From an uncultured Pseudomonadales bacterium (GTDB lineage: Bacteria > Patescibacteriota > Microgenomatia > UBA1400 > MFAQ01): 57,350 bases of DNA. Where the stretch lies: the NCBI GenBank assembly GCA_964429015.1, contig CAYSAM010000004.1, positions 1-57,350 on the forward strand, written 5' to 3'. The first letter of the stretch is position 1. Each line of letters opens with the position of its first letter. Shown here in pieces: positions 1,806-52,213 of the stretch. The notes beneath the pieces are model-generated. The model was given only the letters and a program-made list of their open reading frames with translations, was not told where the DNA came from and did not search any database. The translations under genes and the position numbers were made by a program.

Positions 1806-2866
1806 AAAATTACTTAGAAGTAATCAAAACTTTTTTGGGTTGGAGATTTATATTGTTTTTTCTGTCTTTGCCTGTAATTGGTTTGGCGGGCAATCTAACT
1901 CCATTTGCAAATTTTGATGGTCTTCGCTATATAAGTATTGCTCAGGAAGGATATGGTACCCCCAACACTTTTTATAGTTACTCACTTTTTCCCCTATACC
2001 CACTCTTGATAAAGTTTTTATCTCCTTTGTTTGGTTACTTGTACTCTGGTCTCTTTCTCTCCCACCTGTTTCTTTTACTAAGTTTAATTGCCTTTTATAG
2101 ACTTGCAAGACTAGATTATTCAAAATCAGTGGCTCAAAAAGCAATAATGTTGCTGCTTTGTTTTCCGGCTTCATTTTTTTTCGTATCTGTCTATTCAGAA
2201 TCACTCTTTCTTTTTTTGAGTTTAACCTCAGTCTATTTTTGTCGTCAAAAAAAATACTTATTTTCTGTTCTTGTTGCCGCTCTTGCCTCATACACAAGAG
2301 CAGCGGGGATGTTTCTCTGGCTAATTATTCTCGTGGAATACTTAGAAGAAAACAAAGGTCAGATAAAAGAAATATTCAAGCCAAAATTATTATTGCTTTT
2401 AATACCACCGTTGGGCTTTGTTTACTATCTAAATTATTTACAGATTTACACAAGTAGTATTCTTAAATTTCTACCCTCTATTCCAAATAAGTTCGTTTTT
2501 TTACATCAAGTTATATTGCGCTATCTAAAAATGATAATATTTATTGATCACACAAGTAGTTTATTTTGGGTAATTTTAACCGAGCTCATAATTGGTTTTT
2601 TTATGCTCTACCTGTTAGTTGTTTCTTATAACAAAATTAGATTCTCATACTGGCTCTACTTTTTTATATCTTATTTGATTCCTACACTTTGGGGGAGCTA
2701 CAGTGGCATTTCCCGATTTATCGTAGTTGTTTTTCCAATGTTTTATTTTTTAAGCTTCTGGCTAGAAACTAAACCACAAATTTATCAAAAGGCGTTTTAT
2801 CTTTTTTCGTTTTTGTTAATGATCTTAAATATGAGTCTATTTTTAAAAGGAGTTTTTGTTGGCTAA
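1802..2866 (+). CDS. Polytopic membrane glycosyltransferase, GT-C-like (PIG-V/mannosyltransferase-like)
   Basis: ATG at 1802 (ATGA overlap) preferred over the TTG-extended 1754 ORF. Many TM helices. FANFDGLRYISIAQEGY...LFPLYPLLIKF resembles the conserved first-loop motif of PIG-V-like bacterial mannosyltransferases. Confidence 0.6.
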   Translation: MKNYLEVIKTFLGWRFILFFLSLPVIGLAGNLTPFANFDGLRYISIAQEGYGTPNTFYSYSLFPLYPLLIKFLSPLFGYLYSGLFLSHLFLLLSLIAFYRLARLDYSKSVAQKAIMLLLCFPASFFFVSVYSESLFLFLSLTSVYFCRQKKYLFSVLVAALASYTRAAGMFLWLIILVEYLEENKGQIKEIFKPKLLLLLIPPLGFVYYLNYLQIYTSSILKFLPSIPNKFVFLHQVILRYLKMIIFIDHTSSLFWVILTELIIGFFMLYLLVVSYNKIRFSYWLYFFISYLIPTLWGSYSGISRFIVVVFPMFYFLSFWLETKPQIYQKAFYLFSFLLMILNMSLFLKGVFVG

Positions 2867-4143
2867 TGTTAAGTAGACTAAAAAAACTGGACACTCCTCT
2901 TTTTAGAGATTCAAGTATTTATTATCTTGGCAACTTCTTCTTAAATTTTTTTCGATACCTTTTTCACTTACTTTTATTAAGATTATTATCTCCAGAAGAT
3001 TACGGTGAATTTTTAACCTACCTCTCGTTAATGTATCTACTTGCCATTCCTTCTGGAACCATAACGGGAGTTGTTACAAAGGCTGTTTCTGAATTTGTAG
3101 GGAAAAAAGATGGTCAGTCTTTAAATCTATTTTTCTATCAGATTATCAAAAAAACTTTTTTGGCAACCTTACTACTCTCAATATGTCTTTTGGCATTTTC
3201 AGGTTACCTATCAGTTATTTTCAAAGCTCATCAGCTTGCCTTTATAGTTTTGGGTATAGGAGTAATCTTAACCTTGTTTCAGACTGTTTCAAGCTCCTAC
3301 CTTTCCGGTTTACAGCTTTTTGTTTTTCAGACAATTTTGGGATTTTTAGGAGTAATATTGACAATATCAATTAGTTTCTTGGCCATTAGAATGGGTTATG
3401 GTCCAGGCGGTGCTGTAATTGGCCAGACTTTAGCTGCTCTTATTACAACACTAATTGCATACCTAAAAATAAAAAAATATATTTACCCTCTTAAAAAGGG
3501 TAAAGTGAAGTTTTTGTTTAATTTAAAAAATTTTACTGGTTTTAGTTTTATAAATTCAGTAGGGGTAATGTCTCTTATATCAGTTGATATTCTCATGGTT
3601 AGAGTCCTCTTAAGTCTACAAGACTCTGGTATCTACTCCACTCTCTCAGTTATTAGTCGAACTGTTCTCTTTGGTCTAACCCCCATCTCTTCACTGTTAT
3701 TGCCTATTGCCGCAAAAAAAGCATCGGAAGGTAAAAATCATTTTTTAGTTTTTTTAAAACTAGGACTAGTGATGGTAATTCTCAGCAGTATAGCTATAGC
3801 GATATTTTCTTTTTTCCCAAAATTTATTATCCATCTCTTTTCTGGAGCAAGTCATCCAACCACTGTCTTCCTACTACCGATTTTTGCATTATGCATGGTT
3901 TTATTCGCCTTAAATCAGTTTTTGCTAACCTATTTAATGAGTATAAACAAACAGAAATCAAATTTATTTTTACTTATCATTGCCCTAGCTCAACCTGCTT
4001 TAATCTATTTGTTCAAATATAGTTTGCATTCAGTTGTCCTGTGTAATCTTTTTTTGCAAATAACACTACTAACAACATTGATGGTTGTATACTTAAAACC
4101 AATATCTTCTAGTGTAAAAAATAATAATGACCACGTTAGTTAA
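2866..4143 (+). CDS. Oligosaccharide/polysaccharide flippase (MOP/Wzx family)
   Basis: 425 aa, about 12 hydrophobic helices, no soluble domain. Topology and context are typical of Wzx. TAATG overlap with the upstream gene. Confidence 0.7.
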   Translation: MLSRLKKLDTPLFRDSSIYYLGNFFLNFFRYLFHLLLLRLLSPEDYGEFLTYLSLMYLLAIPSGTITGVVTKAVSEFVGKKDGQSLNLFFYQIIKKTFLATLLLSICLLAFSGYLSVIFKAHQLAFIVLGIGVILTLFQTVSSSYLSGLQLFVFQTILGFLGVILTISISFLAIRMGYGPGGAVIGQTLAALITTLIAYLKIKKYIYPLKKGKVKFLFNLKNFTGFSFINSVGVMSLISVDILMVRVLLSLQDSGIYSTLSVISRTVLFGLTPISSLLLPIAAKKASEGKNHFLVFLKLGLVMVILSSIAIAIFSFFPKFIIHLFSGASHPTTVFLLPIFALCMVLFALNQFLLTYLMSINKQKSNLFLLIIALAQPALIYLFKYSLHSVVLCNLFLQITLLTTLMVVYLKPISSSVKNNNDHVS

Positions 4144-4942
4144 AAACAGACTCATCCGCCACAACCCCAAAATGCTATCAGTAATAGTTCCTGCATATAA
4201 TTGCAAAACTATTCACAATGATCTCATTAATATACAAAAATATTTAAAGACCATAAGAAACCATTATGAGATAATTTGCGTTGTTGACGGTCAAAAGTCT
4301 AAAAAAGATAAAACAAAAAAGCGCGCCTTGAAAGCGAAAAATGATCATATAAAAATTTATTCATATCATAAAAATAGAGGTAAGGGCTACGCTATTAGGT
4401 TGGGAATGAGTTATGCAAAAGGTGGGCTGATTGCCTTTATAGATTCAGGTGGAGATGTAAATCCCTCTGGTTTGGGGTTAGCTATAGAGCATATGAAATG
4501 GTACAAAGCTGATGTTATTGTTGGAAGCAAGCGCCATAAAGCAAGCAAAGTTACTTATCCCTGGCAGAGAAAAATTCTTTCCTTTTTTGTTCAAAAAGCA
4601 ACCAAGTTGTTTTTTGGGTTAAATATTTCCGATACACAAACAGGACTAAAATTATTCAGAAGGGAGGTTTTGGTAAAAATAATGCCACGTCTTTTGGTAA
4701 AAAGATGGGCTTTTGACCTAGAAATGTTAGCAGTAGCAAACCACTTGGGTTTTACAAGAATATACGAATCTCCGGTTGAGATTAACTTAAAATTTGGTAG
4801 CAATGTCGGTATTTCTGCTGTCCAAAATTTTATTACAGACTACTTGGCTATAATTTATCGAATCTATATTCTAAAATATTATGACGATAATTATAAGGAT
4901 CGTTGGGCAGGGGATAAGCGCCTTCATTTAAGATACAAATGA
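4127..4942 (+). CDS. GT2 glycosyltransferase, polyprenyl-phosphate hexosyltransferase-like (DPM1/ALG5/GtrB-like)
   Basis: LSVIVPAYNC...CVVDGQ...AFIDSGGD...RWAFDLEMLAVA pattern. An alternative ATG at 4172 would remove the 17-nt overlap. Confidence 0.75.
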   Translation: MTTLVKNRLIRHNPKMLSVIVPAYNCKTIHNDLINIQKYLKTIRNHYEIICVVDGQKSKKDKTKKRALKAKNDHIKIYSYHKNRGKGYAIRLGMSYAKGGLIAFIDSGGDVNPSGLGLAIEHMKWYKADVIVGSKRHKASKVTYPWQRKILSFFVQKATKLFFGLNISDTQTGLKLFRREVLVKIMPRLLVKRWAFDLEMLAVANHLGFTRIYESPVEINLKFGSNVGISAVQNFITDYLAIIYRIYILKYYDDNYKDRWAGDKRLHLRYK

Positions 4943-5952
4943 TAAAACCACTTGTCTCAGTTATTATTGTCGACTACAAAAAAAGCAACCCTTATTTAAA
5001 GGAGGGACTAGATGCTATAGCCAAGCAAACTTATAAAAACTACGAAATAATTCTAATAACAGATTATCCCGTTGGTCTAGTCTCACCAAAACTGCGCAAA
5101 AAATCATATGGTAAATACGTAGGTCCTGCCAAAAAAAGAGATGATGGTGCAAAGATGGCAAGGGGTAGCATTTTAGCCTTTTTAGATGATGATGCCTTTC
5201 CTGATATAAACTGGCTAAAAGAAATGGTTAAAGAGTACAAAGACAAGGAAATCGTTGCCGTTGGTGGGCCAGGTGTAACACCACCGGGAGTGAGTTGGCA
5301 AGAAGATGCCTCGGGTTGGGCGTCAGCTTCTCCACTTGGTTCGGGAACATTCTCATATCGATTTTTACCTGGTAAAAGACAGCTTGTAGATGATTATCCA
5401 TCCATGAATCTATCTGTTCGGCGCAAAGAATTTTTATCAATAGGGGGTTTTGATTCTAATTACTGGCCTGGGGAAGACACTAAGCTGTGCCTAGATCTTA
5501 TCTCTAAGCTAAATAAAAAAATTATCTATAACCCAAAAATGTTAGTCTATCATCATCGGCGACCTGTTTTTAGAAAACACTTAATTCAGAATGGCAATTT
5601 TGGGCTACATCGTGGGTTTTTTGCGAGAATTCTACCCAAAACATCACTTAAGCCTATTTATTTCCTTCCGTCCTTATTATTACTAGGTGTCAGTTATTTA
5701 ATTGCTGGATATATTCTGTCTATTATTGGTAGACAGGAATACGTAAATCTACCTTTTTATCTTCCAATTCTATATTTAACCTACCTTTACCTTTTTCTCT
5801 TGTTTGCAAACTCAATTTGGATCAGTAAATATACAAAAGGTAAAAAAACGTTTCAGGCCCTTTTTTCTATTATTGTTATTTTTGTTACCCATCTTTGGTA
5901 TGGATTAAAATTTTTACAAGGATTACTATTTACTGATAAACTAACAAGATAG
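4939..5952 (+). CDS. GT2 glycosyltransferase with C-terminal membrane anchor
   Basis: VSVIIVDYK...AFLDDDAFP...GEDTKLCLD motifs, followed by several C-terminal TM helices. ATGA overlap with the upstream gene. Confidence 0.8.
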   Translation: MIKPLVSVIIVDYKKSNPYLKEGLDAIAKQTYKNYEIILITDYPVGLVSPKLRKKSYGKYVGPAKKRDDGAKMARGSILAFLDDDAFPDINWLKEMVKEYKDKEIVAVGGPGVTPPGVSWQEDASGWASASPLGSGTFSYRFLPGKRQLVDDYPSMNLSVRRKEFLSIGGFDSNYWPGEDTKLCLDLISKLNKKIIYNPKMLVYHHRRPVFRKHLIQNGNFGLHRGFFARILPKTSLKPIYFLPSLLLLGVSYLIAGYILSIIGRQEYVNLPFYLPILYLTYLYLFLLFANSIWISKYTKGKKTFQALFSIIVIFVTHLWYGLKFLQGLLFTDKLTR

Positions 5953-5967
5953 TTCTTGTATCCGGGC

Positions 5968-5997
5968 TTGATCGGGGATCTATAAAAAGGTTAGAAT
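5968..5997 (+). promoter_or_regulatory. Candidate sigma70-type promoter of the ferredoxin/radical SAM unit (TTGATC-N18-TAGAAT)
   Basis: TTGATC at 5968-5973 and TAGAAT at 5992-5997. Only 6 nt separate the -10 box from the ATG at 6004, so the mRNA would be leaderless. Confidence 0.45.
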
Positions 5998-6003
5998 AAC
6001 TAA

Positions 6004-6270
6004 ATGCAAAAAATAATAACAGATGAAAATCAATCGGTGGGGGTAAGGGAAGATGGTTATACGGTCACGGTTGATCTCAATAAATGCATTGCCGCCGGCC
6101 CCTGTGCTATAGCTGCTCCAGGTGTTTTTGAAATACGCCCCGAAGATGGAAAGGCAATAATAAGCAATCCTGATGGTGAAGACCTCGATAAAGTACTGGA
6201 GGCCGCACGTTGTTGCCCAATTTTAGCTATTAGTATTAAAAATCAAGCAGGTAAACAAACCTTCCCCTAA
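6004..6270 (+). CDS. Single-cluster ferredoxin (3Fe-4S/4Fe-4S type)
   Basis: 88 aa. CIAAGPC ... CCP cysteine pattern and the VDLNKCIAAGPCAIAAPGVFEI motif are typical of small redox-partner ferredoxins. Confidence 0.8.
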   Translation: MQKIITDENQSVGVREDGYTVTVDLNKCIAAGPCAIAAPGVFEIRPEDGKAIISNPDGEDLDKVLEAARCCPILAISIKNQAGKQTFP

Positions 6271-6276
6271 GTCTTT

Positions 6277-6315
6277 GTCATTGCGAGGCACGACTTTAGG
6301 TCGGCCGTGGCAATC
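6277..6315. repeat. Truncated (left-half) copy of the palindromic CGTCAyyGCGA...GCAATC element family
   Basis: GTCATTGCGAGG, then hairpin CACGAC-TTTAG-GTCGgccGTG, then GCAATC. Same order of modules as the left arm of the 56750-56858 element. Confidence 0.5.
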
Positions 6316-6335
6316 AATAAAAATATATTCATATA

Positions 6336-7892
6336 ATGTTAAAAAAAACTAAAACAAAAAATAACAAACCTTTACGTTTAGTTGTTGGCTATCCACCAAC
6401 ACCGTCCGATAAAGGGGTAATGCTTTTATCGCAAAACCGACAATTTCAGTATTTTAATGCCAAAACCTACATCTACCCAATGGTACCTGCATATGCCGCC
6501 TCAAATGCCCAAGCAAATGGCTACAAAGTAAAATGGATGGATGGTATAGCAGATGAACAAAGTTTTGATGATTGGTTAAAAGAGTTAAAAAAATTTAAGC
6601 CAGATGTTTTAATGGTGGAAACCAAGTCACCTATAGTCAAAAAACACTGGAAGGTAATTGCCAAAATTAAAAAGGAGATGCCTAAACTTTTAACTGTTTG
6701 GGTGGGGGACCATGTTACGTTTGCTCCAGTAGAAATGTTCGAAAATTCACAAGTAGATTATTTGATTACAGGGGGTGACTATGATTTTGTAATTGTTAAT
6801 CTTTTAAATCACCTTAGTAAGGGCGAGAAGTTGGAAGGGGGAGTTTGGTGGAGAGCTACAGATAAAAGAATAAAGGATAAACCTGCAGAAATTTTGGTTG
6901 CCAAGAGAAAACTTAAACTCTGCAACTCCGGTAAGCCAAGCATCGCCCACAATCTAAATGACCTCCCATTTGTAGATCGAGATTTAACTAAATGGGAACT
7001 TTACTCTGTTTATAATGGAAATTATAAATATACTCCGGCTACTTATATGTATTCAGGAAGAGACTGTTGGTGGAACAGATGTACTTTTTGCGTCTGGGAT
7101 CACACTATAAACCCTATTGGCTCTTATCGCCGCTTCTCACCCCAGCGTCTTTTCGACGAGGTAAAGCATGTGGTGGACAAATACCATGTTAAAGAAATTT
7201 TTGACGACGCGGGGACATTTATGATCGGCAAGCCCCTGGCAGATTTTTGTAACTTACTTATAGACTCAGGCTACAACAAAAAAGTGGTTTTTGGATGTAA
7301 TATGCGTCTTAATGCGCTAAAGCAAGAACATTACGACCTTATGGGAAAAGCAAACTTTAGGTTTATCCTTTATGGTATGGAATCTGCCAATCAAAAAACA
7401 CTGGACAAACTAGATAAGGGTGTTAAGGTGGAGCAGATAGAAGAGGGAGTCAGAATGGCCAAAAAAGGAGGGCTAGATCCTCACTTAACAATTATGATGG
7501 GCTATCCTTGGGAAACTTATGAGGATGCCAAAAATACTGTAAATCTTGCCAAAGACTGTTTTAAAAAAGGCTATGTAGATACTCTTCAAGCAACCGTTGT
7601 CATTCCATATCCTGGAACTCCGCTTTGGAAAGAATGCAAAGAAAAGGGCTGGCTATTAAGCGAAGATTACGATGACTATGATATGCGCAAGCCTGTTATG
7701 AAGTCATCTTTAACAGAACAGCAAGTGTTAGAGCTAACTCAAGACTTATACAAGTCATTCTTAGGACCAAAATTTATTCTACGCAAGATTACCGAAATTA
7801 GAAGTTTGGATGATATAAAGTTTTTATTCATGGCGGGTTGGAGATTTTTGGGACACATGATGGACTTTTCACCAAAACAACTAAAGCGTTAA
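6336..7892 (+). CDS. B12-binding-domain radical SAM enzyme (class B-like)
   Basis: 518 aa. N-terminal Rossmann-like B12-binding-type segment (KPDVLMVETKSP...VWVGDHVT...LITGGDYD). Cys triad C-WWNR-C-TF-C read from codons at 7065, 7080 and 7089. GMESANQ and a downstream barrel-like core. Confidence 0.85.
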   Translation: MLKKTKTKNNKPLRLVVGYPPTPSDKGVMLLSQNRQFQYFNAKTYIYPMVPAYAASNAQANGYKVKWMDGIADEQSFDDWLKELKKFKPDVLMVETKSPIVKKHWKVIAKIKKEMPKLLTVWVGDHVTFAPVEMFENSQVDYLITGGDYDFVIVNLLNHLSKGEKLEGGVWWRATDKRIKDKPAEILVAKRKLKLCNSGKPSIAHNLNDLPFVDRDLTKWELYSVYNGNYKYTPATYMYSGRDCWWNRCTFCVWDHTINPIGSYRRFSPQRLFDEVKHVVDKYHVKEIFDDAGTFMIGKPLADFCNLLIDSGYNKKVVFGCNMRLNALKQEHYDLMGKANFRFILYGMESANQKTLDKLDKGVKVEQIEEGVRMAKKGGLDPHLTIMMGYPWETYEDAKNTVNLAKDCFKKGYVDTLQATVVIPYPGTPLWKECKEKGWLLSEDYDDYDMRKPVMKSSLTEQQVLELTQDLYKSFLGPKFILRKITEIRSLDDIKFLFMAGWRFLGHMMDFSPKQLKR

Positions 7893-7939: not shown

Positions 7940-9121
7940 ATGGTAAAAGTTGTTATAGTTTCAGGATTGCTGCCTTCAGGTCATTACACCGAAAACTTAG
8001 CGGGTGGGCTAAATAAAATAAAAAAATTAAAGCTCTTAATTTATACCGATTTAAGAAAAGAGAATCTCCAGGTAAAAAAATGTGGCAAAGTAATACCTGT
8101 TTGGTCAAAGTCTCCAAAGTTTATTTTTCAGATTTTGGGCAGACTCCTAAAAGACAAGCCAGACGTGGTTCATTTTCAGCACGAAATAAATATGTTTGGT
8201 GGGTTAGCAACGGCAGTTATCTTCCCTTTTTTGTTGATTTCAGCTAGATTTCTAAAAATAAAGATTGCTACTACAGTTCACGCCACAGTAAAATCCGACC
8301 AAATAGACTCTGAGTTTGTAGAAACTTTTAACCAAAACCCAAAAATAATTAAACCTATTTTTCTAAAGCTTTTTTTCCGTTTTCTCTATAAATCAATTTG
8401 CCAATTTTCTGACCTATGTTTTGTTCATACTAACACCGCAAAGAGCGTTTTGCTCAGTTACTACCCACATGGACAAAAAAAAATAAAAGTTATTGCCACC
8501 GCAATACCTTTGGTTGACAGTAAAAAATATAAAAAGGAAAAATACTTTTTATACTTTGGTTATATTGCTAGAAGAAAGGGACTAGAAAATCTTATTCAAG
8601 GGTTTAAAGAGTTCTGTAAAAAAAATCCAAAAAGTAAATTTAAACTGCTTCTAGCAGGTGGAGTCATCAAGGGTCAGGAAGAGTCACTGCAAGAGTTGCA
8701 AAAAACCATCAGTACGGCAAAGCTAAAAAACAAGATAAAGTATCTTGGTTTTTTAGAGAAAAATATTCAAAACAAGCTTTATAAACAGGCCTACGGTGTA
8801 GTTATTCCAGCAAAACTCTCCATAAGTGCAAGTGGACCACTTTACCATGCCTTTAGTCATGGTAAGTTTGTTCTGGCCTCAAACGTTGGGCACCTTAAAG
8901 ACGAAATAAAAAGTGGCTATAATGGCTACCTTATACCAAATACAGACTGGTCACGAGGATTTTCCAAGGCAATAAAGAATCCTATTTGGGTAAAAAAAAT
9001 TGAAAGTGGATCGCTGTTTACTGCATATCAAAGAACACCACTTAAAACAGCAAGGAAATACTTTAAGTCTTATAGCTTACTTTTACAAAGAATGTATAAT
9101 AAAAAAAATGAGATCGCTTAA
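7940..9121 (+). CDS. Glycosyltransferase, GT4-like (GT-B)
   Basis: 393 aa. FGYIARRKGLENLIQGF...LLLAGG...ISASGPLYHAFSHGKFVLASNVGHL matches the GT-B C-terminal domain layout. The E-x7-E motif is degenerate. Confidence 0.65.
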   Translation: MVKVVIVSGLLPSGHYTENLAGGLNKIKKLKLLIYTDLRKENLQVKKCGKVIPVWSKSPKFIFQILGRLLKDKPDVVHFQHEINMFGGLATAVIFPFLLISARFLKIKIATTVHATVKSDQIDSEFVETFNQNPKIIKPIFLKLFFRFLYKSICQFSDLCFVHTNTAKSVLLSYYPHGQKKIKVIATAIPLVDSKKYKKEKYFLYFGYIARRKGLENLIQGFKEFCKKNPKSKFKLLLAGGVIKGQEESLQELQKTISTAKLKNKIKYLGFLEKNIQNKLYKQAYGVVIPAKLSISASGPLYHAFSHGKFVLASNVGHLKDEIKSGYNGYLIPNTDWSRGFSKAIKNPIWVKKIESGSLFTAYQRTPLKTARKYFKSYSLLLQRMYNKKNEIA

Positions 9122-9830
9122 ATATAATGGCAGCATGGTTTACGACTCCTTAACAGATGCAGAAATCAGAGCCAACTATCAACATAAACACGTTGTAGAT
9201 TTGTACCTTAAACATTTTAAGGACAAAAAAGTTCTTGATGCGGGGTGTTGGACAGGCACAATAGAAAAAGAGGTTTCTTCACGAAAATTTAAATGCGAAA
9301 TAGTTGGTATAGATCAAAATAAAGCAGCGCTTAAAACCGCCAAAAAAAGTTTTCCTCAGTATAAGTTTTTTCAGATAGAGCTAGATTCACCAGACAAAAA
9401 GTTTGTAAAAAAGCACGGTGGAACTTTTGATACCATTGTTTTTTTGGATGTTATAGAGCACATACCAGTAGGTACAGAGGTTAAAGTGCTTAAGTTCTTA
9501 AGAAAAATGCTCAAGCCGGGCGGGGTAATTATCCTTAGTACAATGTTGGATCATAAATATAACTTTATAGACCCAGCCTGGTTTTTTGGTCACAGGCACT
9601 ATAAAGCAAGCAGAGTTCGAAAATTTCTAGTTTCAGCTAAGTATAAGGTTAAACAACTCCTTAAAATAGGCAATCTCTATTGGGACCTGGACCTACTGTA
9701 TCTCTACATCTACAAACATATTTTTAAAACAGAATACAGAACTACCAAAAGTATGTATAAAAACATCTATCGAGGTATGAAAGAACCTCAAAAATACGCT
9801 ACTAGAATTTACGCCCTTGCCAAAAAATAA
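9108..9830 (+). CDS. Class I SAM-dependent methyltransferase
   Basis: ATG at 9108 preferred over the TTG-extended 9000 ORF. Motif I VLDAGCWTGT, then FDTIVFLDVIEHI and LKPGGVIILST. Confidence 0.75.
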   Translation: MRSLKYNGSMVYDSLTDAEIRANYQHKHVVDLYLKHFKDKKVLDAGCWTGTIEKEVSSRKFKCEIVGIDQNKAALKTAKKSFPQYKFFQIELDSPDKKFVKKHGGTFDTIVFLDVIEHIPVGTEVKVLKFLRKMLKPGGVIILSTMLDHKYNFIDPAWFFGHRHYKASRVRKFLVSAKYKVKQLLKIGNLYWDLDLLYLYIYKHIFKTEYRTTKSMYKNIYRGMKEPQKYATRIYALAKK

Positions 9831-9831
9831 T

Positions 9832-10431
9832 ATGGTAATTAAAGATAGAAACTTAATTGCCAAAATTATATTTCCCAAATCTATATTGGGTGAAAAGATC
9901 AAAAAAGGCACAAAAATACTGGATATTGGTTGCGCAACTGGTAGCTTTCTAAAAAAATGTGATCAATATGGCCTCAAAACCTACGGTTTAGATTTTTCCA
10001 AAAAACTTCTCAAAAAAGCTAGTAAACAAACTAAGGCAAAACTTCACTGTGGTAGTGCAGAAGATCTCTCGGTTTACAAGGACAATTTTTTTCACTTGTT
10101 AACTGGCTTTGATGTTATTGAGCACTTATCCAGTCCTTATACATTTTCAAAAGAAGCCTTCAGAGTATTAAAGCCAAATGGAAAAATAATTCTAACTACT
10201 CCAAATCTAAATTCTCTCGGTCGCCTAATAATGGGAAAAAAATGGCATGGCTACTCCGATAAAACTCATCGCTACCTTTTTACTCCAGAGTCACTGTCTT
10301 ACACGCTGGAAGCTGTAGGTTTTAAGGTGGTAAAGTTAGAGTCACCATTTCATCCTTTACCAAAATTTGTTCAAAGTTTTGTAAACAAAATTGGTTTGGG
10401 TGGTCAAATTTGGCTTGTTGCTAAAAAATGA
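9832..10431 (+). CDS. Class I SAM-dependent methyltransferase (Methyltransf_11-like)
   Basis: ATG at 9832, directly after the upstream TAA, preferred over TTG at 9817. ILDIGCATGSF, FDVIEHL, LKPNGKIILTTPN. Confidence 0.8.
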   Translation: MVIKDRNLIAKIIFPKSILGEKIKKGTKILDIGCATGSFLKKCDQYGLKTYGLDFSKKLLKKASKQTKAKLHCGSAEDLSVYKDNFFHLLTGFDVIEHLSSPYTFSKEAFRVLKPNGKIILTTPNLNSLGRLIMGKKWHGYSDKTHRYLFTPESLSYTLEAVGFKVVKLESPFHPLPKFVQSFVNKIGLGGQIWLVAKK

Positions 10432-11537: not shown

Positions 11538-12664
11538 GCAAAAAAATATTAATTTTTGACATTAGCTACTTAACTGGAAACAATCGTACCCCAATCATTT
11601 CCAAAGTTTTAATTTGGCAAAAAAAGGGTATTAAGGTTGATATTTTTTGCACCAAAGAGGCTAAAGTTGAATACTCTCAAAAACTAAAAAACATCAACTA
11701 TATTCTTTTACCTTTTGCCAGTAGTTCGTCAAACAGGATTGTTTTAATATTCGAAAATCTAAAAAGAAACTTTTTAGCTCTTTTTTGCATATTTAAAATA
11801 TTAAAGTCTAGTTACCACGCTTTCTACTCAATATCTGCAGTTCTCGACCTTGTAATGTTTCCGTATTTGTTGAAAATAATAAATCCAAAATTAAAGTGGG
11901 TTGTTGTTTTTGATAATACTGTTGAAAAAAATGAACCTGGTAATAAATATATAAAATTTTTGGCTTACTGGTTCTACAGACTATCACTATTTTTTTTAAG
12001 AAGTGCTAATACTGTTTTTGTGGTAACGCCACTTTTAAAAGTAAAACTCCTAGAGGAAGGGTTTGTTGATAGCAAGTTGATAATTACGGGAAATGGCGTG
12101 GAACTAGATTTAATAAAAAGTATTAAGAGTCCCAAAAAAATTTACGACGGTTTGTTTGTGGGTCGAATAAATGAAAGCAAAGGTGTCTATGATCTACTAA
12201 ATGTTCTAAAAATAATTTGCAATAAGTACCCAAAATTTATTATGGCTTTAATGGGTAGAGGTGACTTGGACTCCGAAAGAAAATTTTTGGATAGAGCAAA
12301 AGAGCTTGGGCTAGATAGAAACATTTATTTGCTAGGTTTTAAGAGTGGAGACAAAAAAATAAAAGTCTTTAAACAGTCTAAAATTTTTATTTTCTTAAGT
12401 CCAAGTGAAAGTTTTGGGGTGGCCCTTTTAGAGGCGGTGTGCTGTGGCCTACCAGCAGTCGTTTACGATCTAAAACCATACCAGTATATATATAAAAACA
12501 AAGAAATCACTAAATTAAAAATTGGTGACTATGAAGGAGTTGCAAAAGAGGTAATATATCTATATAAAAATAAAAAATTTAATAATGAGAATGGTAAAAA
12601 ATTATTAAACAGATATAGTTGGGATATAATTTCCAAAATAGAACTAAATGCGATAATAAAATGA
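11534..12664 (+). CDS. Glycosyltransferase, GT4-type
   Basis: FVGRINESKGVYDLL...SESFGVALLEAVCCGLPAVVYD. ATGA overlaps at both ends. Confidence 0.8.
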   Translation: MSKKILIFDISYLTGNNRTPIISKVLIWQKKGIKVDIFCTKEAKVEYSQKLKNINYILLPFASSSSNRIVLIFENLKRNFLALFCIFKILKSSYHAFYSISAVLDLVMFPYLLKIINPKLKWVVVFDNTVEKNEPGNKYIKFLAYWFYRLSLFFLRSANTVFVVTPLLKVKLLEEGFVDSKLIITGNGVELDLIKSIKSPKKIYDGLFVGRINESKGVYDLLNVLKIICNKYPKFIMALMGRGDLDSERKFLDRAKELGLDRNIYLLGFKSGDKKIKVFKQSKIFIFLSPSESFGVALLEAVCCGLPAVVYDLKPYQYIYKNKEITKLKIGDYEGVAKEVIYLYKNKKFNNENGKKLLNRYSWDIISKIELNAIIK

Positions 12665-13536
12665 AACAGGTAAAATCTACAGTCTACGATAAGGACTTCT
12701 TTAAGAGAGTATATGGCGCCGACAATCATAGTTTTGATTTTTCTTCTGGAGTGTCTAAAGACTATTACAAAGAAATGGTTGATTTAGTTAAGCTAAAAAA
12801 AAGTGACACAATTGTCGATTATGGGTGCGGAAATGGCAATCTATCTTTTTTATTGTGGAAAAAATATCACTGCAAAATAATCGCTTTTGACTACTCAAAA
12901 GATGCAATCGATATATGCAATGAAAGATTAAAAAACTTTAAAAAAAGGTTTCCTCAAATGGATATAAGCTTTTTGGTTGCTAATAATACAAACCTGCCTC
13001 AGCTTACTAAAGTAAGGGCAGTATATTTTTGTGATGTGGTTGAGCACATGTATGATAACGAAATAAATCTTGCTATAAGTAACATAAAAAGTTGGAGTCA
13101 AAGAAAAATAAAAATAGTTATCCACACCGACAATAACTACTACCTGCGATTTGTAAGACCTGTTATTGTATTTTTTATGATTCTACTAGGCAAAAAAACG
13201 GTTTCGCAGGCAATGTCCGACAAACAGGAGGAAAGCAGAGTTCATATCAATCTTACAAACCCAAATATTTTAGCTAAAAAGCTTAAACAGCTTAAAGTAA
13301 AACATCTTAAAACTCTGTATCCAAAAGTCACAAAAGCAAAAATAAAAAAACAGCTTTCGGTCTTTAGAGAAATAAACCCTATTATCTCTTTTTGTTACTT
13401 TGCCTTAAACTTAATTCCTTTTCTTTCGCCTAGTTTTTACTCTGTTTTTCGGCTTAATGGCATAGGCCATAAGAAAGTTTCCATGTCGCGGATCAAGTTT
13501 GCAAAAAAAGTCAGAAAGCCAGCCAAAAAAAGGTAG
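12661..13536 (+). CDS. Class I SAM-dependent methyltransferase with hydrophobic/basic C-terminal extension
   Basis: ATG at 12661 (ATGA overlap) preferred over TTG at 12619. IVDYGCGNGNLSF, YFCDVVEHM. The last 126 nt overlap the convergent gene. Confidence 0.75.
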   Translation: MKQVKSTVYDKDFFKRVYGADNHSFDFSSGVSKDYYKEMVDLVKLKKSDTIVDYGCGNGNLSFLLWKKYHCKIIAFDYSKDAIDICNERLKNFKKRFPQMDISFLVANNTNLPQLTKVRAVYFCDVVEHMYDNEINLAISNIKSWSQRKIKIVIHTDNNYYLRFVRPVIVFFMILLGKKTVSQAMSDKQEESRVHINLTNPNILAKKLKQLKVKHLKTLYPKVTKAKIKKQLSVFREINPIISFCYFALNLIPFLSPSFYSVFRLNGIGHKKVSMSRIKFAKKVRKPAKKR

Positions 13537-14199
13537 ATATCCGGTAGAAGATAGTGTAATTTTTTTAAAACCGGTTACTTCTAGCATTTCATATAGTCCT
13601 CTGTAAGCCAAAACTCTTACATGTCCTACTGTTCCGGTAACTCCAGACTTTTGATATTTATCCAAAAAATCCTGATCTTTTTTTACACCCAAATGCCAAG
13701 TTAGAGGGTTTCCAAGGTTGTAACCATTAATACAGGTAGTGGAAAATGGCTGCCAGCCCAGAGCTAGTGATAATACATTCACCCAAGAAGACAAATTTTC
13801 AGTTAGTATAATCAGCCTCCCCCCTGGCTTAAGGCATCTGAAACATTCTTCTAAATATAGACGCGTGTTGTGCATATGTTCTATGTTTTGGCTCGATAGA
13901 ATTAAGTCAAATTTACTAGACTCAAGATCCCATTCAGAGTTCAGATCACTTTTTACGCATTTTATTCCCTTATTGGTGGCTAGCTTCCTTGTTTCGTCTA
14001 CATACTCAATTCCATATATACTTTTTGGCTTAACCTTTTTTGCAAACTCCATAGTAAAAACTCCATCCCCGCAGCCAATATCCAGCATTTTACCGACTCT
14101 CTTACTAGCAGCTAGCAAAGTGGCTCGTTTGTTTAGCTTGTCTAGCCCATCATCAAAAGCTAAAGGGGAGTACCACTTAAGAAATTTTTTTATTATCAT
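13411..14199 (-). CDS. Class I SAM-dependent methyltransferase (Methyltransf_11-like)
   Basis: 262 aa. MLDIGCGDGVF, FDLILSSQNIEHM, LKPGGRLIILTEN. Confidence 0.85.
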   Translation of the reverse strand: MIIKKFLKWYSPLAFDDGLDKLNKRATLLAASKRVGKMLDIGCGDGVFTMEFAKKVKPKSIYGIEYVDETRKLATNKGIKCVKSDLNSEWDLESSKFDLILSSQNIEHMHNTRLYLEECFRCLKPGGRLIILTENLSSWVNVLSLALGWQPFSTTCINGYNLGNPLTWHLGVKKDQDFLDKYQKSGVTGTVGHVRVLAYRGLYEMLEVTGFKKITLSSTGYLPFFGWLSDFFCKLDPRHGNFLMAYAIKPKNRVKTRRKKRN

Positions 14200-14250: not shown

Positions 14251-16557
14251 GTGAAAGACATATTTATAAAAAAATGGTATTTTTTGTTGCTAATTGGGGC
14301 ATTTTCTTTTTTTGTTTGGTCTATATTAGATAAAAACTACTATATAGGTGGCGATGTAATGTTTCCACTATACGGGACAGACTTTTTCAAAAAAATATTT
14401 CTCTGGAATAGTGGCGGTGAATCTCTGGAGTATATGCACTTTTTTTGGTATTTGTATTTTGGTTTGTTACGCCAAATGGGTTTTTCTGGATATGTTGCCC
14501 AAAAAGTTCTTATTGTTTTGCTTGAAGTGATTGGCTTTCTGTTCAGTTTTCTTTTGTATAAAGAGCTGATACCTCACAAAAATTCAAATGAGGCAAATAA
14601 ATGGGCTGTTCTTTCTGGAGCAATCTTTACTTTTAGTCCAATTTACTTTTTGCTTGTTACAGCTTATCTTCCACTATACGGTTTTCCAGTCTGTCTATAT
14701 CTATTGGTTAGATATCTTAAAAAAAAGAGTTTTTTATTAGAAATAATCTATGCGTTTTGTTTAAACTTTTTTCTGTTTATCGACTTGCCACAGCCAAAAA
14801 TAATTATAATTTTTGTTGCTGTTAGTTTTTGTCTTTTATTATTAATATCAGGCACTAAGGGTATTTCAATATGGAAGCTCTTTTTTAGGTTTTTAAATCT
14901 AAATATTACAGCCCTTATTCTCAATTCTTGGATAATTTTGCCTTATTTGTATAGTGTCTTATATGGATCTGTGGCCAACTTCTCAAATAATTTGGCCTCT
15001 CACCACGGAACTGCCGATATGGGGTCTGCTAGCTTATTTTATATTTCTCGCTTTTTTAATTTATCTTTAACTACAATCTATCCTATTATTGGCAAGTATC
15101 TATTATCTGTTCCCTTTAGTATCTGGTCATATTTAGGTTGGTTTATTATCGCTTTTGGATTGTCTGTAAACAACAATTTCAAAACACAGAAGACTAAAAT
15201 TATGCTTCTATTTTTTTGTTTGTTGTTTATTTTTCTGGCCAAAGGACCAAATCCACCTTTTGGTGAAATATACACCAAATTGGTTGTTGTAGTGCCAATA
15301 TTTAGAATTTTCAGAACAACATCATCTGTAGTCCTGGGATCTCTTGTTTTTTACATTTTGCTACTACCACTAACTCTTTCTCAGATCAGTAAAAAATACC
15401 ATTTTAAAAACCTATTTACTGTATTTTTTATTTTTACCGTTTTAATGGGATATCCCATTATTTTAGGCCAGAAGTACTTTAACGCAGAAAAGAAACAGGT
15501 ATCTGGTAGGGGGGTAAAAATACCAAGCGAATATTTTGAGGTAGCCAAAAAAATTGACAACTTAGACGAAAACTATTCTATATTGCAGTTACCATTTCCA
15601 GATGGTTATGTTCTTAAAAACTGGGATTATTTCGGTGCTGATCTTGTTTATTGGATAAGTACCGCCCCCACCCTTCATCGACCAGATCAGCCTGGCCTAA
15701 GTCTGGAAAAAAATAGCTTAAACCTGGAAACTTTTAGTCAAAACAACCAGTTTCTTTTAAATAATGTTAGTCATGTGCTTATTCAAAAAGACGCTTCAGA
15801 CTCACCTAACTGCAATCTAAGCGATTTAGGTAAAGTAGTTCATACTGATAGTTTTTTTAGCTTGCTTGAAGTTGATAAAAGATATACATATCCAAAAATT
15901 TATGTTCCAAATCGTTATCTATCCCCAAAAAATTATCAAGATATAGGTACTTTATCTTTCATTGACCCTGAGCTAAAAAAAACACTTTGTGTTAAGGTGC
16001 AAAATGATTTCAAGATTAAGGCTAGTGATTCAAATATAGCGGCAGTTAACATTAAAGATTTAGATCTCCTTATAAAAGACGGAGTATCAACAGATTCTGC
16101 AAACATTAGCGAAATAGTCGTAAAAAGAATTAATCAAACAAAATACAAGGTAAGTATTCCAAACGCAAGTGATAACTTTAGTATTGTTTTAAATGAAAAA
16201 TACAACACAGGATGGAAAGTTTATTTAAGTGATGATAAAGATAATCAGTCTGCAAATAACAACTTATCAGAGTCGCATCGCGGCGTTCAGTATCAGAAAA
16301 AAGATTTCTTTGAGCCTTTTTTGCAAGACTGGTTTAAAAAGCCTCTAGTTGAAGAGCAAAACCATTACCTAGCAAATGGATACGGTAATGGCTGGGTCAT
16401 AAGTAGCAAAAAAAACTCTGGCAATACTACAAGCTTAAATATAATTATTGAGTATTGGCCTCAAAGACTATTATATTTAGGGTTAATAATTTCCATTACT
16501 TTTACCTTTTCCAGAATAATTTATATTTTGACCTTAAAACTCAAAAAAAATGCTTAA
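14251..16557 (+). CDS. Large polytopic membrane protein with big extracytoplasmic C-terminal domain, GT-C-like (YfhO/AftD-like architecture)
   Basis: 768 aa, GTG start. About 12 N-terminal TM helices, a ~330-aa soluble region, then one terminal TM. The family call rests on architecture only. Confidence 0.55.
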   Translation: MKDIFIKKWYFLLLIGAFSFFVWSILDKNYYIGGDVMFPLYGTDFFKKIFLWNSGGESLEYMHFFWYLYFGLLRQMGFSGYVAQKVLIVLLEVIGFLFSFLLYKELIPHKNSNEANKWAVLSGAIFTFSPIYFLLVTAYLPLYGFPVCLYLLVRYLKKKSFLLEIIYAFCLNFFLFIDLPQPKIIIIFVAVSFCLLLLISGTKGISIWKLFFRFLNLNITALILNSWIILPYLYSVLYGSVANFSNNLASHHGTADMGSASLFYISRFFNLSLTTIYPIIGKYLLSVPFSIWSYLGWFIIAFGLSVNNNFKTQKTKIMLLFFCLLFIFLAKGPNPPFGEIYTKLVVVVPIFRIFRTTSSVVLGSLVFYILLLPLTLSQISKKYHFKNLFTVFFIFTVLMGYPIILGQKYFNAEKKQVSGRGVKIPSEYFEVAKKIDNLDENYSILQLPFPDGYVLKNWDYFGADLVYWISTAPTLHRPDQPGLSLEKNSLNLETFSQNNQFLLNNVSHVLIQKDASDSPNCNLSDLGKVVHTDSFFSLLEVDKRYTYPKIYVPNRYLSPKNYQDIGTLSFIDPELKKTLCVKVQNDFKIKASDSNIAAVNIKDLDLLIKDGVSTDSANISEIVVKRINQTKYKVSIPNASDNFSIVLNEKYNTGWKVYLSDDKDNQSANNNLSESHRGVQYQKKDFFEPFLQDWFKKPLVEEQNHYLANGYGNGWVISSKKNSGNTTSLNIIIEYWPQRLLYLGLIISITFTFSRIIYILTLKLKKNA

Positions 16558-18133
16558 ACTTGTTACAAAAATCCTATCACTATTAGCGCTATTTGCACTT
16601 GGAACAGTCTGCACTTATTTCTATTTAATTCAAAGTGGTTTTGGAATTTTTAATCTACTTACACCCGGAGTTAATTCTAGTTTAGAGTCATATGGATTTG
16701 ACGAATTTATGGTAGGAGACAAGGCTACAGGCCACTTTACCTCTGCACACAATAATCTGGGCATAGTAGCTGTAAGGTTTACAAACAAAAACAGAGACAG
16801 TAGAGATGTAGTTATCTTTAGAATCAAAGAAGACGGTTCCGGCACCTGGTACTATGAAGCAAAATACAATACCGACCAGTTTCTCCCAGGTAAACTATTT
16901 CCTTTTGGCTTCCCTCAAGTTGAAAACTCTAAGGATAAAAACTTTATTTATGAAATCGAATCAACGAATGGAGCTACGGGTAGCGGAATTTTTTTGGATT
17001 ATCAAAAACCAGTCTACGTTTCAGCATACTTTTTTAATAAAAATGATGTAATGGGGGATCTAAAAAGTACCATTAGCTTTATATTGCAAAAATCTAAAAA
17101 TATTTTTGAAAATAAAACAGATCTAATTCAGGTAATTATCTTTTTTATACCAGCCGTTTTTATAACTATTTACTTGTTTTTCGGGAACAAAAAAACTCCA
17201 GCACTATATTTATTATTTTTTACTGGAATCATTTTTGACATATTTTTGGTTCCCAATAACTCCACCTTTTTGATGATATCTTTAACTTTTATTTGGATGT
17301 TTGCAAAACTAAAATACAGAACTAATTCAATTTTTACAATTTACAACATTCTTATTCTATTACTGTTTAGTTTAACTGCAGCGTTATTAAGATATGTATC
17401 ATATGCAGAAAAAACTACAGTCTGGGTTTATATACTTTTTTTCTATTTGTTTTTTGAACAATTGCAAGAGATTAAAATTGGATTCAAAAGTTCAATTGAC
17501 CTTAACTTTCTAAAACAAGTTTCAATTGGTCTAGCGCAAAAAAACAGAATCAAAATAAACAAAATTATTCCAGTTTTAATAACAGGGAGTTGTATATTCA
17601 TTGCTTACCTATTAATCGAAAGCATCATTTTAGTTAAAAATAGTTTCAAAATTTATACCGAGTACTTTTCAGATGGAATTCCAAGTGTTATTTTGTCCCA
17701 ATTTATTTTTGGAATAACAATAATTTTTATTTCATATTCACTCCTTTTCATGTTTTTTATCAAAATAAAAATAGCAAAAATAATCCCAATTCTAATATCA
17801 ACAGTACTACTATTCCAGATCACAAAAATATTTGTAAGCAACTCAACTTCATTCCAATATGTACCTAAAATTATTTCTCTAACGCCGCAAAAAACCACTG
17901 AGGCTTGGGTGGATGTAACTGTTAACGGCTTGAACTTTGAAGACAAGCCTTTCGTTGGTAAGTTGTTTTTGTCTGGGGAAGAACAATTTGAAAACATAAT
18001 AAACTGGAGTAATAAGAGTATTATTTTTCGCACCAATCCTTCCAAAACAAAAAGTGGAAATGTCTGTGTTCAAACCTTAAGCAGGGGCGAAAGCAACTGC
18101 TTACCTTTTGAGTACAATTTCTCCAAAAAGTAG
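16550..18133 (+). CDS. Polytopic membrane protein with N-terminal exported domain and C-terminal IPT/TIG domain
   Basis: 527 aa. Signal-anchor, soluble region, about 8 TM helices, then PKIISLTPQ...VDVTVNGLNF...IIFRTNPSKTKSGNVCVQT...LPFEY (IPT/TIG-like). 8-nt overlap upstream. Confidence 0.7.
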   Translation: MLKLVTKILSLLALFALGTVCTYFYLIQSGFGIFNLLTPGVNSSLESYGFDEFMVGDKATGHFTSAHNNLGIVAVRFTNKNRDSRDVVIFRIKEDGSGTWYYEAKYNTDQFLPGKLFPFGFPQVENSKDKNFIYEIESTNGATGSGIFLDYQKPVYVSAYFFNKNDVMGDLKSTISFILQKSKNIFENKTDLIQVIIFFIPAVFITIYLFFGNKKTPALYLLFFTGIIFDIFLVPNNSTFLMISLTFIWMFAKLKYRTNSIFTIYNILILLLFSLTAALLRYVSYAEKTTVWVYILFFYLFFEQLQEIKIGFKSSIDLNFLKQVSIGLAQKNRIKINKIIPVLITGSCIFIAYLLIESIILVKNSFKIYTEYFSDGIPSVILSQFIFGITIIFISYSLLFMFFIKIKIAKIIPILISTVLLFQITKIFVSNSTSFQYVPKIISLTPQKTTEAWVDVTVNGLNFEDKPFVGKLFLSGEEQFENIINWSNKSIIFRTNPSKTKSGNVCVQTLSRGESNCLPFEYNFSKK

Positions 18134-18141
18134 TTATTATT

Positions 18142-18180
18142 TTCTAATATCTTCTAACATCTTCTAGTATCTACTAAGTG
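18142..18180. repeat. Tandem 10-bp repeat (TTCTAAyATC-like, about 3.5 copies) upstream of the GT-C gene
   Basis: TTCTAATATC / TTCTAACATC / TTCTAGTATC / TACTAAGTG read directly, immediately before TAAAAT (18181-18186) and GTG 18193. Confidence 0.75.
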
Positions 18181-18192
18181 TAAAATAAACTT

Positions 18193-44933: not shown

Positions 44934-44937
44934 TCTA

Positions 44938-46617: not shown

Positions 46618-46643
46618 AGGTCAAAAGAAGCTAAAATCAAAAC

Positions 46644-48043: not shown

Positions 48044-48046
48044 ACT

Positions 48047-50935: not shown

Positions 50936-50937
50936 AA

Positions 50938-52212: not shown

Positions 52213-52213
52213 A

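Follow-up and report, generated by a model that had tools for sequence, protein, structure and literature searches.

A conserved flippase, glycosyltransferase and radical SAM gene module in Patescibacteria, a candidate system for the remodelling of lipid-linked sugars

Introduction

In the Arn pathway, flipping is preceded by a chemical modification of the lipid-linked sugar, for which ArnD is responsible. The logic of glycosylating a lipid and then remodelling its sugar with a radical S-adenosylmethionine (SAM) enzyme is represented by the synthesis of the hopanoid cyclitol ether, in which the family 2 glycosyltransferase (GT2) HpnI puts a hexosamine on a membrane lipid and the B12-domain radical SAM enzyme HpnJ remodels this sugar by a proposed ring contraction (PMC13459092). 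In the archaeal counterpart, the sugar of a membrane lipid is remodelled by the radical SAM enzyme calditol synthase (Cds), for which ring contraction has likewise been proposed (PMC13459092). HpnI/HpnJ and Cds are the closest analogy in logic to the locus that is investigated in the current study. It is located on contig CAYSAM010000004.1 of the assembly GCA_964429015.1, which was deposited as an uncultured Pseudomonadales bacterium and is placed in the Patescibacteriota by its GTDB lineage; the 57,350 nucleotides analysed (positions 1 to 57,350, forward strand) are referred to as the window. Our subject is a radical SAM protein of 518 amino acids encoded in this window (rSAM), together with the genes for a ferredoxin, two GT2 proteins (GT2a, GT2b) and a Wzx-type flippase that precede it.

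Further points of reference are provided by individual enzymes. AprD4 (PDB 6FD2) is a sugar 1,2-diol dehydratase responsible for the C3' deoxygenation of apramycin. Together with OxsA, an HD-domain partner, OxsB (PDB 5UL2-5UL4) processes soluble deoxyadenosine phosphates. It acts on the sugar ring without methylating it, ring contraction has been demonstrated, and its crystal structure exhibits a cluster motif of the CX4CX2C type (PMC9204698). The same cysteine spacing is present in GenD1 (PMC4340712), which together with GenK and MoeK5 (the three are compared here by description) represents the tailoring of sugars by class B radical SAM enzymes and is, like these, encoded in an antibiotic gene cluster and not in an envelope glycan locus.

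A sequence-only reading of the window, made without database searches, had proposed that the ferredoxin and rSAM constitute a radical sugar-modifying or lipid-carrier-modifying step. Our comparative analysis documents a conserved gene module, and we tentatively propose, with somewhat less than even confidence, that it performs a non-methylating rearrangement or deoxygenation on a lipid-linked sugar before flipping.

Results and Discussion

Conservation of the module

The genomic context of rSAM was surveyed in 81 non-redundant related loci (one genome per species), whose open reading frames (ORFs) were called and searched with the proteins of the window; the context counts refer to the 66 loci with at least 2.5 kb of upstream sequence. 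Same-strand upstream homologues were found for GT2b in 60, for GT2a in 46, for the Wzx-type flippase in 42 and for the ferredoxin in 39 of them, and an unsupervised clustering of the neighbours retrieved the same four partners and none other at comparable frequency. The same gene order is present in WWE3 and in a 1.1-Mb Patescibacteria contig, based on independent gene calls and precomputed Pfam labels. GT2b sits directly upstream in 60 of the 66 loci, and it abuts the rSAM ORF within a few bases or overlaps it where the ferredoxin is absent, which identifies GT2b and rSAM as the core pair. The complete module comprises a Wzx-type flippase, GT2a, GT2b, a ferredoxin that is restricted to one subclade, and rSAM, the ferredoxin and rSAM being its last two genes.

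The five module genes of the window (Table 1) are closely packed; the first two junctions are overlaps of 17 nt (flippase and GT2a) and 4 nt, the other two are gaps of 51 and 65 nt. The sequence-only reading had delimited the ferredoxin and rSAM ORFs correctly, but the spacer between them (6271-6335) measures 65 nt and not 66 nt as stated there. Its description of the neighbourhood, with GT2 genes in front and a GT4 gene plus two SAM methyltransferase genes behind, is borne out by Pfam. The latter three genes are located outside the conserved module, and downstream homologues of them occur in a minority of the related loci.

Table 1. Features of the module and its immediate flanks in the window
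Feature	Position	Strand	Remarks
Wzx-type flippase	2866..4143	+	First gene of the module; polytopic, multiple transmembrane (TM)-like segments; Polysacc_synt PF01943, E 1.6e-8
GT2a	4127..4942	+	Soluble or peripheral GT2 without TM segment; Glycos_transf_2, E 2.2e-20
GT2b	4939..5952	+	Membrane-anchored GT2; Glycos_transf_2, E 1e-14
Promoter-like hexamers TTGATC-18-TAGAAT	5968..5997	+	9/12 consensus match
Ferredoxin ORF	6004-6270	+	88 aa; ORF call
Imperfect GC-rich hairpin, ferredoxin-rSAM spacer	6274..6321	+	Minimum free energy -17.6 kcal/mol, z -1.8
rSAM ORF	6336-7892	+	518 aa; radical SAM enzyme with B12-binding domain; subfamily uncharacterised
rSAM N-terminal Rossmann (cobalamin-binding-type) domain	6375..6830	+	Residues 14-165
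Clade signature S32-QNRQFQYF-40	6429-6455	+	Within the 29-residue beta1-alpha1 loop of rSAM
rSAM radical SAM partial TIM-barrel core	7038..7655	+	Residues ~235-440; residues 461-516 form a helical C-terminal cap behind the core
Cluster motif C244-WWNR-C249-TF-C252 (CX4CX2C)	7065..7091	+	Codons 7065, 7080, 7089
Variable downstream flank	7940..10431	+	GT4 7940-9121; class I SAM methyltransferases ~9108-9830 and 9817-10431 (Pfam)

The extent of this conservation bears on the simplest explanation of the locus, namely that a generic pair of a B12-binding radical SAM protein and a housekeeping ferredoxin came to lie in a glycan island by chance and without functional link. The variability of the flanks beyond the core module and the lack of the ferredoxin in many loci would be compatible with such an accident. 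However, at least 60 species-level genomes, belonging to several phyla, have this gene order, the ferredoxin is fixed in its position (its start precedes the rSAM ORF by a median of 311 nt), and the loci are not near-identical assemblies of a single lineage, as the rSAM proteins share between 51% and 91% identity. A fortuitous association is hence very improbable.

The context of the rSAM family is consistently of the glycan type (GT2-GT2-Wzx) and not that of lipid or cofactor pathways; a recurrent association with a non-glycan pathway, named in the sequence-only reading as the outcome that would speak against its proposal, was thus not observed. In the window, the module belongs to a glycan island of ~41 kb, which harbors further Wzx and Wzy proteins, a PMT-type GT-C protein, Bac_transf and GDP-mannose dehydratase genes as well as many GT4, GT2 and methyltransferase genes, and PMT/PMT_2-like polytopic proteins accompany the module in its loci. 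No paper describing the module was found in literature searches on Patescibacteria and the candidate phyla radiation, and the earlier remark that such an arrangement is not described for an envelope glycan locus stands within the literature searched.

The two glycosyltransferases differ in their affiliation. The catalytic domain of GT2a resembles in sequence those of polyprenyl-phosphate glycosyltransferases (GtrB, ArnC, PpgS): PpgS and ArnC are the best NCBIfam matches, both under the cut-off, and GtrB sll0501 (1.1e-9) and ArnC (9e-8) were retrieved from the PDB by sequence. In GT2b, a GT-A domain precedes three long helices at the C-terminus (residues 239-262, 271-298 and 304-331 of an AlphaFold2 (AF2) model with a pLDDT of 85.5), and the TM-like segments of the protein are located within residues 237-326. 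The highest query TM-scores of GT2b were obtained for BcsA (0.65) and hyaluronan synthase (0.62), a generic GT-A/membrane-GT2 likeness that is not diagnostic for the identity of the acceptor, and a search of GT2b against NCBIfam gave no match to HpnI at E <= 0.01. The three-component systems for polyprenyl-phosphate glycosylation (GtrA/GtrB/GtrV and ArnC-ArnD-ArnE/F-ArnT) likewise combine a GT2 of the GtrB/ArnC type with a flippase and with GT-C transferases, and the module is distinguished from them by a flippase of the Wzx type in place of GtrA or ArnE/F, a second, membrane-embedded GT2 and a radical SAM modifier.

The radical SAM protein and its family

The affiliation of rSAM with the radical SAM superfamily is documented by its three-cysteine motif, by the Pfam score (Radical_SAM PF04055, residues 242-404, E 1.9e-17, 64.3 bits versus a threshold of 29.5) and by a high-confidence structural model that matches radical SAM structures. 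The AF2 model, calculated from an alignment of 100 sequences (pLDDT 94.9, pTM 0.93), exhibits a Rossmann domain of five beta-alpha units (residues 14-165), a linker, the radical SAM core and a helical C-terminal cap. Together with the fold matches it confirms the architecture recognized earlier from the sequence, a B12-binding-type N-terminal domain in front of a radical SAM core. The Foldseek comparison with the PDB ranks AprD4, MgmA, TsrM, OxsB, TokK and CysS in this order, and the best match, AprD4, has an E-value of 8.4e-21 (TMq 0.68, TMt 0.77). Of these, MgmA, TsrM, TokK and CysS are cobalamin-dependent methylases, and OxsB catalyses a cobalamin-dependent ring contraction. A single-sequence search of the PDB yielded weak C-terminal matches only (MgmA, AprD4) and no OxsB at E <= 0.01. 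The profile of the clade aligned with OxsB across both the Rossmann domain and the core (E 2.7e-13) and matched the cores of MgmA (E 3e-21) and AprD4 (E 1.6e-19); the alignment with AprD4 stops short of the N-terminal domain.

A comparison with the curated NCBIfam models placed HpnJ (TIGR03471) on top, with 165.7 bits versus a cut-off of 577.6 (E 1.7e-48, residues 43-505), followed by BchE (107.5 bits), HpnR and PhpK (64 bits each), a lipid biosynthesis B12/radical SAM model (55 bits) and MJ_0865 (50 bits), and the AprD4 model NF033070 reached 33.9 bits versus a cut-off of 500. Every score is far below its cut-off, and membership of rSAM in the HpnJ, BchE, AprD4, PhpK, HpnR or similar families was rejected; the likeness to AprD4 is one at the fold level. 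The HpnJ cut-off was passed by none of the ten more distant relatives tested. The resemblance to the hopanoid system lies in the succession of a GT2 and a sugar-remodelling radical SAM protein, with HpnJ as the best curated model, whereas no hpn or shc genes are found nearby, the neighbours being GT2, Wzx and ferredoxin genes.

OxsB shares with rSAM the combination of a Rossmann domain of the cobalamin-binding type and a radical SAM core. It differs by its length of 744 amino acids, by extra domains and by a pairwise identity of only ~14%. The genes adjacent to rSAM in the window encode GT2b, the ferredoxin and GT4 and not an OxsA-type partner, and an HD-domain protein was found neither among the Pfam-scanned genes of the window nor in the Pfam-labelled loci L002-L005, the other loci having been searched with the window proteins only. 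An orthology of rSAM and OxsB was rejected: the identity is ~14%, the homology is at the profile level only and no HD-domain partner stands alongside in the window.

Based on these comparisons, rSAM belongs to no curated family and represents a large uncharacterised subfamily. Its signature comprises Q33-N34-R35, invariant within the beta1-alpha1 loop, together with E95, G124-D-H126, D214-R215, F289-D-D291 and Y390-x-W392-E393. Homologues of rSAM number in the thousands. At E <= 1e-30 the clade amounts to 415 clusters of 50% identity, and it is carried by at least 593 species-level genomes. The hosts are mainly Patescibacteria, namely Collierbacteria (83-91% identity), WWE3, Roizmanbacteria and Microgenomates, supplemented by Chloroflexota, the candidate division FCPU426, one actinobacterial and one archaeal metagenome-assembled genome (MAG).

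Some loci contain a second rSAM paralogue a few kilobases away. In L078 (~3208-7600) it is located 874 nt downstream and 51% identical, and the second paralogues of L027 and L074 show 24-28% identity. Many MAG records with the module (L006, L008, L010, L016, L019 and others) are labelled as uncultured Gammaproteobacteria, Pseudomonadales, Bdellovibrionales or similar; their proteins are 65-91% identical to those of Collierbacteria and WWE3, and they look like mis-assigned Patescibacteria bins.

The CX4CX2C motif

Eight cysteines are present in rSAM (residues 196, 244, 249, 252, 305, 321, 408 and 434), of which C244, C249 and C252 are invariant across the clade. They constitute the triad C-WWNR-C-TF-C, which had been read from the codons at 7065, 7080 and 7089 as CX4CX2C and is exactly confirmed. 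The string CWWNRCTFC is found in all 120 closest database homologues (65-91% identity) and the pattern CWW[NG][KR]C[TSA]FC in 80 of the 81 non-redundant related loci, the exception being L049, in which the scan did not detect the motif. That the CX4 spacing stems from an indel or a sequencing error is excluded by this conservation among the orthologues; an indel error was what canonical spacing in orthologues would have pointed to according to the sequence-only reading. Among the cluster representatives retrieved by an exhaustive HMMER search, proteins with more than ~40% identity have CX4, some more distant members of the clade have CX7 (CWWRKDGGCTFC), CX9 or CX3, and generic class B proteins with ~28-31% identity exhibit the canonical CPFxCxFC (CX3). 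The CX4 spacing thus marks a clade whose first cysteine loop varies in length.

The non-canonical spacing is hence real, but it is not new, given the precedents of OxsB and GenD1 (PMC9204698, PMC4340712). OxsB and rSAM align cysteine for cysteine in this region, and RGC-DYSR-CTFC-PRDH of the former and RDC-WWNR-CTFC-VWDH of the latter share the pattern RxC-xxxR-CTFC-x-[WR]-DH. The motif of AprD4 appears to be of the CX3CX3C type (GCPYPCRFYC in the alignment) and not CX4CX2C. Megacluster-4-11 of RadicalSAM.org, for which CX4CX2C is listed, was discarded as irrelevant; it is part of the biotin/thiazole-synthase megacluster and not of the B12 group. The motif alone is of little consequence, and it is the conserved module that merits follow-up.

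Two peculiarities of the cluster site were noticed among the homologues. Four of them (P0122, P0124-P0126) contain inteins with a LAGLIDADG homing endonuclease exactly at a cluster cysteine (CTF|C-intein), and P0123 harbors a LAGLIDADG-type intein at RD|C; the insertion sites correspond to the codons 7089 and 7065 of the window. All three cluster cysteines are lost in P0138, P0142, P0143, P0150 and P0156 (e.g. RDSDWGQSSLGS), which are full-length proteins with 31-39% identity and look like catalytically dead paralogues.

The ferredoxin

The small protein in front of rSAM matches the models Fer4_13 (E 5.6e-12) and Fer4_15 (E 1.3e-8) for single-cluster ferredoxins, both above the gathering scores. 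Its motif is C28-xx-A31-xx-C34 ... C71-P72, in which C28, C34 and C71-P72 are invariant in all 40 orthologues aligned, whereas the extra Cys70 of the window protein is lineage-specific (4 of 40). Alanine occupies the second ligand position (Ala31) in every ferredoxin that was retrieved by an unconstrained C..X..C search. CxxAxxC...CP is the pattern of [3Fe-4S] ferredoxins, whose potential is in many cases not particularly low. The motif accordingly suggests a cluster of the [3Fe-4S] type, and the low-potential donor assumed in the sequence-only reading is not obviously what this three-cysteine protein provides. It could serve as electron donor to the rSAM cluster, or as acceptor if the reaction is oxidative.

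The ferredoxin gene is located between GT2b and rSAM in 39 of the 47 loci with a CWWNR motif versus none of the 19 with CWWG[KR] or CWWNK, a contrast that is confounded by phylogeny, and it represents an insertion specific to the CWWNR subclade. The ferredoxin neighbour is thus conserved, but in one subclade only. A search of the ferredoxin-less loci for alternative motifs of the 2x[4Fe-4S] type had a sole match inside an ORF of 449 residues, and a small ferredoxin gene was not among the results.

The expression signals around the gene are inconspicuous. The region contains seven promoter-like matches of the 9/12 grade of TTGATC-18-TAGAAT, versus 7.5 +/- 2.8 in shuffled sequences; this candidate is indistinguishable from chance and carries no weight, and a promoter of the ferredoxin's own is not confirmed. 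The hairpin of the ferredoxin-rSAM spacer is weak, as nine of 200 shuffles fold equally well, and no T-tract terminator was found around the ferredoxin or after this hairpin.

Cobalamin binding and the proposed reaction

The Rossmann domain of rSAM matches the Pfam B12-binding model (PF02310) over residues 44-146 with 29.6 bits, just under the gathering score of 32.1. Cobalamin-contact motifs were compared according to the definitions for OxsB, TsrM and TokK, i.e. G-x-S/T-x-X on the beta3-alpha3 loop, one or more glycines on beta4, and GE at the start of alpha5 (PMC9204698). The beta3-alpha3 loop of rSAM reads M93-V-E95-T-K97. The glycine of the motif is lost, and the Ser/Thr that contacts the dimethylbenzimidazole (DMB) tail is replaced by the invariant Glu95. 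In the profile alignment the cobalamin contacts Ser184 and Asn186 of OxsB correspond to Glu95 and Lys97, the latter position being occupied by Arg69 in TsrM; the glycine of the OxsB 'VGN' corresponds to G124 and 'GE' to Y149-D150. A single invariant beta4 glycine (G124) is retained as in OxsB, and D150 preserves an acidic residue at the 'GE' position. Throughout the clade, the residues Q33, N34, R35, E95, G124 and H126 are conserved without exception.

The presence of the fold does not imply the presence of the cofactor, as AprD4 and ArsL have the same architecture without cobalamin and the Rossmann-like domain of AprD4 binds none (PMC12931638). The designation of rSAM as cobalamin-dependent in the sequence-only reading is hence justified with respect to the B12-type Rossmann fold, but the dependence itself had been assumed, and the sub-threshold Pfam score, the altered contact motifs and the AprD4 precedent argue for caution. 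From the sequence we predict cobalamin use as plausible, with slightly more in favor of it than against it. To our knowledge, the reduced Patescibacteria that host the module generally have no cobalamin synthesis.

The reaction that we tentatively propose would proceed as follows. At the cytoplasmic face of the membrane, GT2a and/or GT2b would assemble a sugar on a carrier anchored in the membrane, for which polyprenyl phosphate is the most likely candidate. The [4Fe-4S] cluster bound by the CX4CX2C motif of rSAM would be reduced and SAM cleaved, and the resulting 5'-deoxyadenosyl radical would abstract a hydrogen from the carrier-linked sugar, with the three-cysteine ferredoxin giving electrons to the rSAM cluster or taking one back if the reaction is oxidative. 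The outcome would be a non-methylating one, either a skeletal rearrangement such as a ring contraction of the kind suggested for HpnJ and Cds and demonstrated for OxsB, or the dehydration/deoxygenation of a diol similar to the reaction of AprD4. The Wzx protein would then flip the modified lipid-linked sugar, and the GT-C/PMT-like membrane proteins of the locus may transfer the product to the envelope. The scheme builds on gene order and domain assignments only, from which we infer each of its steps. Non-methylating chemistry is favored because the closest relatives that have been characterised modify sugars by reactions other than methylation and because the cobalamin motifs are degraded; the altered motifs and the precedent of AprD4 render a cobalamin-independent, and hence non-methylating, reaction plausible.

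Several points weigh against this proposal. No member of the family is biochemically characterised, so that its function is a prediction, and gene adjacency does not identify a substrate. The top rank of HpnJ reveals little about the chemistry, because unrelated generic class B proteins outside the clade, for which the HpnJ model is also the best one, reach higher scores (P0212, 297 bits; P0168, 304 bits). The ferredoxin is not essential to the chemistry, because it is absent from entire subclades. The Rossmann domain of rSAM still aligns to the genuine cobalamin domain of OxsB, and the Pfam B12-binding model scores above its gathering threshold in the relatives P0122-P0124 (34-40 bits). Finally, most characterised class B enzymes are methylases, several of them acting on sugars (PMC9204698), and GenD1 with its identical cysteine spacing is a gentamicin sugar C-methylase (PMC4340712).

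The last points lead to an alternative that retains the module and its substrate and regards rSAM as a cobalamin-dependent class B methylase, which would add a C-methyl branch in the manner of GenD1 and GenK on aminoglycosides or of MoeK5 on moenomycin, the ferredoxin supplying electrons for the cleavage of SAM and the regeneration of methyl-cobalamin. In addition to the above-mentioned alignment with the OxsB domain, the beta4 glycine and the acidic residue at the 'GE' position are kept, and the cobalamin-dependent methylases MgmA, TsrM, TokK and CysS are strong fold matches. On the other hand, the Ser/Thr that forms a hydrogen bond with the DMB tail is replaced by an invariant glutamate and the motif glycine is lost, the B12-binding score of the window protein is below the threshold, the hidden Markov models of methylase type match it weakly (HpnR, PhpK and MJ_0865; see above), and the hosts are generally devoid of cobalamin synthesis as far as we know. 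Methylation is therefore a possible but somewhat less probable outcome, which would reveal C-methyl-branched envelope sugars.

A second alternative concerns the substrate: instead of the sugar assembled by GT2a and GT2b, rSAM may modify a soluble nucleotide sugar, a membrane lipid or the lipid carrier itself at its isoprenoid or acyl chain, and its adjacency to the glycosyltransferase genes would then reflect nothing but a shared pathway. Models for this are HpnP/HpnR and the enzymes that modify glycerol dialkyl glycerol tetraethers or form ladderanes, all of which act on lipids. Class B includes many modifiers of lipid tails (PMC13459092), the lipid biosynthesis B12/radical SAM model gave a weak match, and enzymes of nucleotide-sugar metabolism such as GDP-mannose dehydratase are encoded in the surrounding loci. 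But neither lipid-synthesis genes, according to the neighbour clustering, nor nucleotide-sugar genes are conserved partners of rSAM, and its tight and often overlapping pairing with GT2b across phyla is indicative of consecutive steps on one membrane-bound intermediate. We regard a different substrate as rather unlikely. The interpretation of the sequence-only reading is supported in part, with regard to its glycan context.

A more far-reaching reading goes beyond the non-methylating remodelling that we prefer. Hundreds of Patescibacteria and some Chloroflexota and other lineages would employ a dedicated GT2-GT2-(ferredoxin)-radical SAM-Wzx module to make a polyprenyl-phosphate sugar that is either ring-contracted (carbocyclic, calditol- or cyclitol-like) or otherwise radically rearranged, and to export it to the envelope, an extension that we consider doubtful at present. 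If true, it would represent a previously unknown type of cell-surface sugar and the first case of a glycan intermediate modified by a radical SAM enzyme while attached to its carrier lipid, and the logic of HpnI/HpnJ and calditol synthesis, to glycosylate a lipid and radically remodel its sugar, would extend to the carriers of envelope glycans. It would possibly also be a case of a 'B12-type' enzyme without B12 in organisms that are unable to make B12. What is new is an uncharacterised subfamily of the class B type in an envelope-glycan and carrier-lipid context, while its cysteine spacing has precedents. The envelopes of the candidate phyla radiation are chemically almost unknown, yet they mediate the episymbiotic lifestyle. 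With an uncharacterised rSAM subfamily that is locked to two GT2s and a flippase across these genomes, the module is small and clonable, and the family provides a natural test of whether the Rossmann domain of class B enzymes needs cobalamin in organisms without B12 synthesis.

Surroundings of the module

The glycan island of the window ends at ~41.7 kb and is followed by RecO and the dcw cluster (43296-53368) with mraZ, mraW, ftsI, mraY, ftsW, murG, ftsA and ftsZ, thus documenting a chromosomal location beside genes for cell wall and division. Within the island, the sole strand switch of the first 24 kb is found at 12619-14199, where the methyltransferase ORF 12619-13536 of the plus strand meets a convergent methyltransferase gene of the minus strand (13411-14199) that overlaps its 3' end. 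It is followed at 14251-21356 by four consecutive genes for proteins of 768, 527, 499 and 555 amino acids with 5-10 TM-like segments and no significant Pfam match; the second has a weak TIG match and the last a faint PMT_2 match, and the four may represent divergent GT-C glycosyltransferases or polymerases.

Two further observations stem from the related loci. In one Patescibacteria genome (L004), genes for S-adenosylhomocysteine hydrolase and a PfkB-family kinase closely precede the module and are encoded on the other strand (5181-7712), a pair that may be related to the recycling of SAM by-products. A conserved protein of ~170 amino acids with four TM-like segments and no Pfam family, which the window does not contain, is encoded directly downstream of rSAM in 18 loci, mainly Roizmanbacteria-like ones (L004, 11791-12318, and 17 others).

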